Shown here in pieces: positions 17,559 through 19,269 of a stretch of 64,000 nt of DNA. The notes beneath the pieces were generated by a model that worked only from the letters and a program-made list of their open reading frames with translations, had not been told where the DNA came from and did no database searches. The position numbers and the translations under genes are program-made. The DNA comes from Octopus vulgaris (lineage: Eukaryota). Location: positions 52,142,001-52,206,000 of the forward strand of contig OX597829.1 in NCBI GenBank assembly GCA_951406725.2, in the 5' to 3' direction. The first letter of the stretch is position 1. Each line of letters starts with the position of its first letter.

Positions 17559-19269
17559 TGTGTGTGTATATGCATGGTATGTGTGTATATGTTAGTACTT
17601 TGTTTGTGTGTATGTGCGGCATGTAGAGATATATTTGAGTGTGTACGCTATAGGTTTGTAATTTGTGTGTGTGGGGGGTGGTGAATTTTTTATATATATA
17701 TGTGTGTGTGTATGTGTGTGAAAAAATATATGTATGTGCATGTATGTATGTATGTATGTGTGTATATATATATATATATGTGTATATATATGTGTGTGTG
17801 TATGTGTGTGTGTGTATATTTATTTGCATGTTTATGTGTGTATAAACATGTACATTATTTGCATGCGCATTGTATATATGTATATTGTATGTATGTGTAT
17901 TGTATATGTACGTGTACAATTAAGTGTATATATTTGTGTGTATGTGTGCACTGTATATATGTATATTGTAGGTGTGCTATATGTGCATGAATACATGTAT
18001 ATGCATTGCGTGTATATATATGTATGCATTGTGTGTGTATGTATGTTATGTGTGTGTGTGTGTATATATATATTATATGTATGCGTACGTGTATGTGTAT
18101 GCATTGTATGTATGTGTGTTGTGTGTATATGTGGTACATCTATGTATGTGTATGTAAACACTATTTATATGTATATGTGTATATATGTATATGCATTGTC
18201 TATATATATATATATTGTATGTATGTATTGCGTATGTATATTGCATGCATATATTGTGTATGTATATTACTTACATGCTGTATGTGTGTATTGTATGTGT
18301 GTATATATATATGCTAGGTGTATTTGTGTGATATTTATATTATGTATGTATGTGTGCGTGTGTTGTGTGTGTGTGTGTGTATGTGTGTTATATATCTGTG
18401 TATATTATATATAGATACATGTTATATTTGTGTGCTGTGTATATATGTGATATATGTGGGTGCGTTGTGTGTGGGTGTGTGTGTTCTGTGTGTGTGTGTG
18501 TTGTCTGTATGTGGTTTGTGTTTGTATACTATGTGTGTGTGTGTGTGTGTTGTTGTGTGTGTGTGTGTTTGTGTGTATATATATGTGTGTGACAAACAGA
18601 CGCTGTCTGACCAGCAGGCACGGACACATCTATTCACACCCGCATACTAACCTCCTGATAACCCCAAAATCATTCATGCATAAAGGGGAAGTATACACCA
18701 CATTGGCTACTTCTGTTCTCTCAGTTCAGCCTTTCTGCTAATACTAACAGGTCAGTAAAAACATACTTAAAATATTCTGAGATGGACAAAAAATCCATTT
18801 TAATTTTTGCTGTCAAAACGCTGTATATATATACCAAAGATTGTATATATATACATGTAATGTGACAATTTGCGACAACCAATAATTAACGCAACCAATT
18901 CCCAATAATATATTTGTTTTATCCTTTTCTGCCAAATTTTCCCAAATAATGTGACAATTATGTATAGAAAAACATTTTTGAATTCATAATATCCAATGTG
19001 ACAATTATGTAAAAAACTTTTTTGAATGCATAATATTCAATGTGACAATTATGTAAAAAACTTTTTTTGAACCCATAATATCCAATGTGACAATTATGTA
19101 AAAAACTTTTTGAATGCATAATATTCAATGTGACAATTATGTAAAAAACTTTTTTTGAACCCATATTATTCAATGTTTCCTTAAATGTAACTTTTGACAA
19201 TCTTTTACCAAAGAGTGAAACCGGTTAAGTAAATAAACATCGTTTAAATTGCATTTTCAAACCTTTTTT

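Follow-up and report, generated by a model that had tools for sequence, protein, structure and literature searches.

The closest described systems to the motif analyzed here are the minimal type I hammerheads (min-HHRs) in the pLTRs of Penelope-like elements (PLEs); statements on published work, here and below, refer to excerpts of the sources cited. PLE min-HHR monomers are inactive and dimers have low activity (PMC4209133), and the tandem/dimer model has been reviewed in PMC6765202. A G10.1–C11.1 pair with a bulge after A9 is a consensus feature present in >80% of them, the published alignment also holds helix II exceptions, and the supplement contains many U17 sites (PMC4209133); the NUH cleavage-site rule is set out in PMC3884650. 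A U3–A8 core is likewise in print. It occurs in the min-HHRs of the S. mansoni Cercyon PLE, with ~1,300 matches (PMC4209133), and among the natural variants of Perreault 2011, where U3–A8 pairs were active in vitro and U10.1·U11.1 was the best-tolerated mismatch (PMC3088659). A literature search by U3–A8 wording returned only PMC4209133, and we found no paper on octopus hammerheads of this kind; neither result shows absence from print.

Another close system is PAc, a Poseidon element of Anolis (PMC11167929). Its hammerhead lies at the pLTR–ORF boundary, two RT starts downstream bound the tail, and cutting by the hammerhead requires the presence of protein; in vitro, insertion was unaffected by ribozyme mutations, and the RNA-seq data contained no reads ending at the site. 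Canonical endonuclease-bearing (EN+) PLEs have a single ORF, and some PLE types have a frameshifted ORF1 (PMC8557442). Among the EN+ PLEs, Neptune and Nematis have an RT, a CX2-5CxxC linker and, at the C terminus, a GIY-YIG domain, form tandem and inverted pLTRs, carry a 30–40-bp tail at one end, and occupy (TA)n targets (PMC8557442).

We analyzed a 64,000-nt stretch of the Octopus vulgaris genome (contig OX597829.1, positions 52,142,001 to 52,206,000; hereafter the window), in which an initial annotation had read hammerhead letters at 19190–19237. We found all of these letters in place. The motif occupies 19190..19230 on the + strand, antisense to the ORF and inside an inverted arm. Helix I pairs ACTT (19190–19193) with AAGT (19227–19230) over 4 bp, compared with 6 in sister subfamilies. 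The core from U3 to A9 is TTGACAA (19194–19200), and a hairpin within 19201–19216 places U10.1 at 19201, U11.1 at 19216 and helix II at 19202–19206/19211–19215. GAAA follows at 19217–19220, with G12–A14 at 19217–19219; the palindrome ACCGGT (19220–19225) includes the A15.1–U16.1 pair; and U17 is T 19226, after which a cut is predicted at a GUU site. The core class is defined by Y3-U-G-A-N-R8-A, GAAA and U-H with Watson–Crick pairing of 3 and 8, next to an open helix I of 4–5 bp; all the core residues are present here (U3–A8, G5, A6, A9, G12–A14, A15.1–U16.1, and U17). The AATAAA noted after the motif is also there, at 19232–19237, 6 nt past the predicted cut in the window family, but it is not kept in all relatives: it is AGTAAA in L063 and absent in families B, C, D and R.

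The motif shares its place in the pLTR, its 4-bp helix I, its palindromic 15.2–16.2 segment and its U3–A8 core with the S. mansoni Cercyon min-HHR, the pairing of U3–A8 with a GUU site with the PLE-associated supplement row S. mansoni(4), and a 2-nt palindromic insert with D. virilis and M. japonicus (PMC4209133). Compared with the PLE min-HHR consensus in that source, it lacks G10.1–C11.1 and the bulge between 9 and 10.1 and opens helix II with U·U. Both U3–A8 covariation and a U10.1–U11.1 mismatch appear among the variants of Perreault 2011, as in the window motif, but the excerpts of that report do not show the two in one ribozyme, nor in a PLE (PMC3088659).

An identical motif lies on the − strand at 13016..13056, in ORF sense and close to the element's 3′ end, with the cut predicted between 13020 and 13019. 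It is the only one of the two in ORF sense; the 19190 motif faces outward on the other strand. The identity of this mirror stood up, but its value as a second witness did not. Counting the two motifs as independent evidence was rejected, as both lie in one 2,103-nt inverted repeat with 99.5% identity. A cis dimer formed by the pair was rejected as well, the motifs being one duplicated end on opposite strands; one transcript of the window copy therefore holds one motif and cannot dimerize both.

Judged from its sequence, the carrier is an EN+ Penelope-like element of a young family, in the window a 5′-truncated and inverted-duplicated copy. On the − strand, the 3′ non-coding end (pLTR, 12969..15067) comprises CA/TA-rich low-complexity sequence, a unique stretch, 44-bp repeats and the hammerhead, the 44-bp tandem repeat (5.1 copies, 13070..13297; mirror at ~18948–19176) being directly upstream of the hammerhead. 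The low-complexity part, 13640–15067 and its mirror, amounts to ~1.4 kb and has been copied with the element. The inverted duplicate of this end (17179..19277, +; 99.5% identical) is joined to the 5′-truncation point and stops 49 nt past the predicted cut, in (TA)n. At the other end only, a “tail” of ~37 nt (12932..12968, −) carries the element to 88 nt past the predicted cut, where it runs into (TA)n at 12901–12932. The coding part consists of a 5′-truncated reverse transcriptase frame (15634..17178, −; Pfam RVT_1, E 2.7e-08) and a CX4CxxC linker with a GIY-YIG endonuclease (15104..15709, −; Pfam E 4.7e-05), the linker C-X4-C-X2-C having been recognized by eye in the translation ahead of the endonuclease. 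RT and EN are out of frame in the window copy and in one frame in full-length copies such as L089, to which the window copy is 99.6% identical over 4.2 kb. The window copy has neither ORF1 nor the start of the RT-EN frame.

This architecture shares with Neptune and Nematis the RT, linker, C-terminal GIY-YIG domain, tandem and inverted pLTRs, one-sided tail and (TA)n targets (PMC8557442), and the element matches the description of that type by layout, tail and (TA)n flanks, a placement by description. It departs from them in its long relatives, where a separate ORF1 lies upstream and overlaps the RT-EN frame. With PAc it shares a hammerhead at the pLTR–ORF boundary and two downstream points bounding a tail. 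PAc has C3–G8 and an ORF that starts inside the ribozyme (PMC11167929), whereas in the window family the first ORF starts 120 nt past the predicted cut and the linker is CX4CxxC. That the window family is very young is seen from three things: the exact 41-nt motif has 656 genomic matches (control, 0), 40 of 40 scored copies (of 918 candidates) show 100% identity across 108 nt, and long open frames are present in many copies.

We found the motif ahead of ORF1 in 6 of 12 family loci with long ORFs; at two of the 12 the 3′ end is interrupted by repeats and lies outside the view. Four of the 12 (L089, L090, L092, and L094) have the motif at both ends of a 5,806–5,827-nt unit. In L089, the predicted cut lies 120 nt before the ORF1 start, and the insertion ends 49 and 88 nt past the cut. 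ORF1 is ~435 aa in the long copies (L089, 6587–5280, −; L094; L095; L100, 4198–5433, +) and overlaps the RT-EN frame in these four loci, giving two ORFs where canonical EN+ PLEs have one. It had no Pfam family above cut-off and no usable Atlas match, and is 45% identical over 255 aa between two families. Both ORF1 families have a heptamer of six U's followed by A at the ORF1/RT-EN junction. L100 has its RT-EN frame at −1, and counting bases gives the same for L082 and for contigs of runs X1 and X11, but eight of nine family-A genomic copies are one base shorter at the junction, a +1 relation. This is a candidate programmed frameshift in an EN+ PLE, and homopolymer errors are possible at such a run.

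To count the states of positions 3 and 8 genome-wide, we used a loose pattern with GAAACCGGT fixed 12–22 nt downstream, restricted to one palindrome class and compared with a reversed control. U3–A8 had 9,002 genomic matches against 74 in the control, C3–G8 181 against 31, C3·A8 239 against 41, and U3·G8 187 against 31. U3–A8 is the commonest state of the ACCGGT palindrome class in this genome; what appears in S. mansoni as a variant (PMC4209133) is the majority state here. From a reading of the match lists, most of the listed single-change matches look like decayed U3–A8 family members (~2% each), and 66 of the 100 C3–G8 matches listed belong to one 360-bp tandem repeat. Canonical-core searches would therefore badly undercount hammerheads in this genome, at 9,002 U3–A8 versus 181 C3–G8 within the one palindrome class. 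The initial annotation had predicted that a canonical search would miss the motif, and this held for Rfam: a scan of 10000–22000 gave no hammerhead family among 105 matches at E ≤ 10, mostly microsatellite noise. Its presentation of the U3–A8 core as a surprise fell, because the core is already published for PLE hammerheads and other natural ones; the variant is known, and finding it again matters little by itself.

Evidence for selection on the structure came from parts of the motif that the search did not impose. Forty regions were drawn from the match lists for the diversity of their helix II or for their family type, with helix I and position 17, neither of which was part of the search pattern, disregarded in the choice, and 20 further loci were picked by RT similarity; all loci together gave 63 distinct motifs, 46 of them U3–A8. 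Helix I had at least 3 contiguous pairs in 34 of these 46 (shuffle mean 9.5; best of 2,000 shuffles, 19), and at least six different helix I sequences pair. Position 17 was A in 20, C in 15, U in 10 and G in 1. We then aligned 31 motifs, picked from the 63 to span families with damaged near-copies left out. In this alignment, 87.7% of cells pair, and the covariation score was 0.71, compared with 0.19 for shuffled controls (0 of 500 reached it) and ≤0.19 for slid ones; kinship among the motifs and their selection for diverse helix II sequences mean that these shuffle counts cannot be read as probabilities. In 31 of 31 motifs both inner pairs of helix I form, with 3–4 pair types, helix II covaries at 10.2/11.2, and the 3–8 pair is U–A in 23, C–G in 4 and unpaired in 4. 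The genomic excess of 9,002 over 74, together with covariation of helices I and II in several families, indicates that the motif structure is selected. The covariation foreseen among genomic copies is seen across families and is unreadable in the window's own family, whose copies are nearly identical; the proposal that a double change C3U/G8A kept the pair under selection stands insofar as 3–8 covaries across families, but this element is not where the double change arose.

From 20 motifs of other families, with the window family and its nearest U·U family (family E) left out, we built a covariance model; it ranked the two window copies first of 7 matches in the 64 kb, at 27.5 bits and a rough E of 0.0014; the model shares the core imposed by the search pattern. 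Eight diverged PLE loci were found by RT alone (~60–83% identity), and six of them carry a hammerhead-like motif, all U3–A8 in at least one arm and two decayed with the palindrome ACTAGT; the other two, L103 and L105, had no hammerhead-like motif. The palindrome changes as a palindrome, to ACTAGT in L102 and L104 and to AGCGCT at 55.8 kb of the window.

Helix II is where the window motif differs from what had been drawn. The 5-bp stem II of the initial annotation, 19201–19205/19210–19214, can form and has a similar energy (monomer, −0.5 kcal/mol, versus −1.0 for the U10.1·U11.1 register), but it leaves two extra bases ahead of G12, and relatives favor the other register. Relatives with AAAAAG in place of AAGAG pair only as U10.1·U11.1 followed by the equivalents of 19202–19206/19211–19215; their register runs U·U and then C–G, and the window subfamily can form both. 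Among the 46 motifs, 10.1/11.1 is U·U in 18, G–C in 10, A–U in 6, A·C in 6 and G·U in 4. The consensus G10.1–C11.1 pair and bulged base after A9 are absent from the window family, which stacks three departures, U3–A8, U10.1·U11.1 and U17, on A-U-rich helices. In the monomer fold as computed (−5.4 kcal/mol), the core is paired to the cleavage site; for the dimer, the best computed fold is 7.8 kcal/mol more stable than the double hammerhead. This gap is 0–13.2 kcal/mol in 11 other motifs and 6.3 in a canonical C3–G8 one, so the folding energies do not discriminate.

We next consider where copies end. All of 30 loci, found with a query spanning the cleavage site, end at one of two points, 14 short and 16 long, with one of the long ends running into ORF1; where arms are paired, six of six have one short and one long end. 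In these 30 loci the insertion ends carry no poly(A) and lie in (TA)n, 49 or 88 nt downstream of the site. Within the first 28.5 Mb of C1, all nine matches to the core likewise continue through the cleavage site. Because copies extend 49 or 88 nt past the site, the RNA that was copied must have been uncut or re-ligated there. Four of 24 listed runs, guessed to be RNA, cover the stretch from ORF1 to the hammerhead as contigs, a form that does not reveal ends, strand or level. No position with many ends was listed for them, and a single adapter-bearing loose end 3 nt from the predicted cut belongs to one contig and carries no weight; these runs speak neither for nor against cleavage.

The repeat that supplied most of the listed C3–G8 matches offers a natural series of 3–8 states. 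This non-coding, retrozyme-like tandem repeat of 359–360 bp (L043–L046, L067–L074, L054, L058, and L062) has subfamilies with U3–A8, C3·A8 and C3–G8 cores. It carries the same hammerhead class as non-LTR retrozymes (PMC7229834; bioRxiv 10.64898/2026.07.22.740005), from which the window element differs in being a protein-coding RT-EN element with a 5.8-kb unit. We built a tree from 12 of 32 extracted units, 1–2 per locus with intact context, with positions 3 and 8 set to N. The four C3–G8 and four C3·A8 units formed sister groups (support 100/97 and 95/90) on a joint branch (97/98), with four U3–A8 units outside. This suggests a path U3–A8 → C3·A8 → C3–G8, under a midpoint root that rests on one long branch. 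The C3·A8 group is present at several loci and in tandem, and its spread makes it less likely that each mobile unit strictly requires a paired core. The three states in a related repeat are material with which the need for cleavage could be tested.

Taken together, the letters, position and covariation bear out the proposal that a Penelope-like element carries a minimal type I hammerhead in its pLTR. We read the motif as a likely slow self-cleaving RNA that needs a second copy and probably also an element protein, and we put the probability of this reading at roughly 0.68. A second copy would pair through the palindrome to form a double hammerhead, and cleavage following GUU would bring a tandem read-through transcript down to unit length or else permit circle formation. 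On uncut or re-ligated RNA, two points downstream of the ribozyme would serve as starts of reverse transcription, which would yield a short and a tailed end. The copy in the window is a truncated, inverted-duplicated product, its two motifs pointing outward on opposite strands. A very young family whose tandem donors are intact provides material with which to test the role of PLE hammerheads.

The main competitor to this reading is a hammerhead descendant kept as a binding or folding signal for the RT-EN protein near the reverse-transcription starts, with cleavage lost or irrelevant. We regard it as unlikely, yet it deserves serious weight: all examined copies contain an uncut site, the window family combines three weakening departures with a competing helix, the C3·A8 subfamily amplified, and PAc insertion does not need cleavage in vitro (PMC11167929). 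A signal of this kind does not account for the avoidance of G at H17 in 45 of 46 distinct motifs, as catalysis would demand, or for the sorting of 3–8 states into paired forms genome-wide. It also sits poorly with the recurrence of A9, G12 and A13–A14 in the RT-picked loci, where decayed copies vary at A9.

A bolder version of the slow-cleavage reading, which we hold to be doubtful, is that the PLE hammerheads of this genome are tuned down, the RNA staying uncut and being cut only when the ORF1 or RT-EN protein refolds the dimer. On this speculation, to the U3–A8 core that is dominant in the ACCGGT class the currently amplifying family would have added U10.1·U11.1, U17 and a core-hiding helix. 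The reverse transcriptase would start 49 or 88 nt downstream while the RNA is uncut, and the non-coding parasite family would have walked back from U3–A8 to C3–G8 through a mismatched C3·A8 that still spread. If true, the parasite's states would be a natural allelic series in which to test the importance of cleavage for transposition. Only the three weakening features in an amplifying family and that allelic series might come as a surprise to specialists.

Very improbable, by comparison, is an efficient monomer that relies on unseen tertiary contacts, through the 44-bp repeats or distal helix I, and makes an RNA 3′ end with AATAAA. The AATAAA does lie 6 nt past the site in the window family, and distal helix I extensions can be drawn, but AATAAA is downstream of the cut, on the released piece, and lacks conservation between families. 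A loop of 2 nt would close helix III, the palindrome has stayed palindromic, and the insertions stop in (TA)n 49 or 88 nt past the site and lack poly(A). Finally, the idea that AT-rich DNA gave the match by chance and the inverted duplication made it stand out would fit the short A-U-rich helices, the lack of an Rfam hammerhead match and a mirror that is merely a duplicate, but we rejected it on the >100-fold excess over control and the covariation of helices I and II, to which the fixed position at PLE ends can be added.

Several further observations concern relatives of the motif and the surroundings of the element. Among loci L031–L038, L047–L049, L053, L056, and L064, those of family B have directly before U3 a run rich in pyrimidines that ends in AG and resembles a 3′ splice site. 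This AG also takes part in the pairing of helix I, which is where the D. virilis Penelope intron ends (PMC4209133). In families B and C, U3 occurs together with A17, and the two could pair in the manner proposed for C3–G17. An older PLE family has the palindrome ACTAGT and a bulged helix II (L102, 6147–6194, +; L104, 6401–6448, +, and 2915–2962, −). Within the window, a DDE_3 (Tc1/mariner-type) transposase fragment lies just left of the insertion at 12292–12642 (+; Pfam E 3.5e-09). A long imperfect inverted repeat pairs 19985–20495 with 20176–20676 (84% over 516 nt) and contains a strong hairpin at 20253–20416, probably a DNA-transposon remnant. At 55819–55865 (+), we found a second, decayed U3–A8 hammerhead-like motif with a 5-bp helix I and AGCGCT as its palindrome; helix II is poor, and a short (TA)n comes after the motif.
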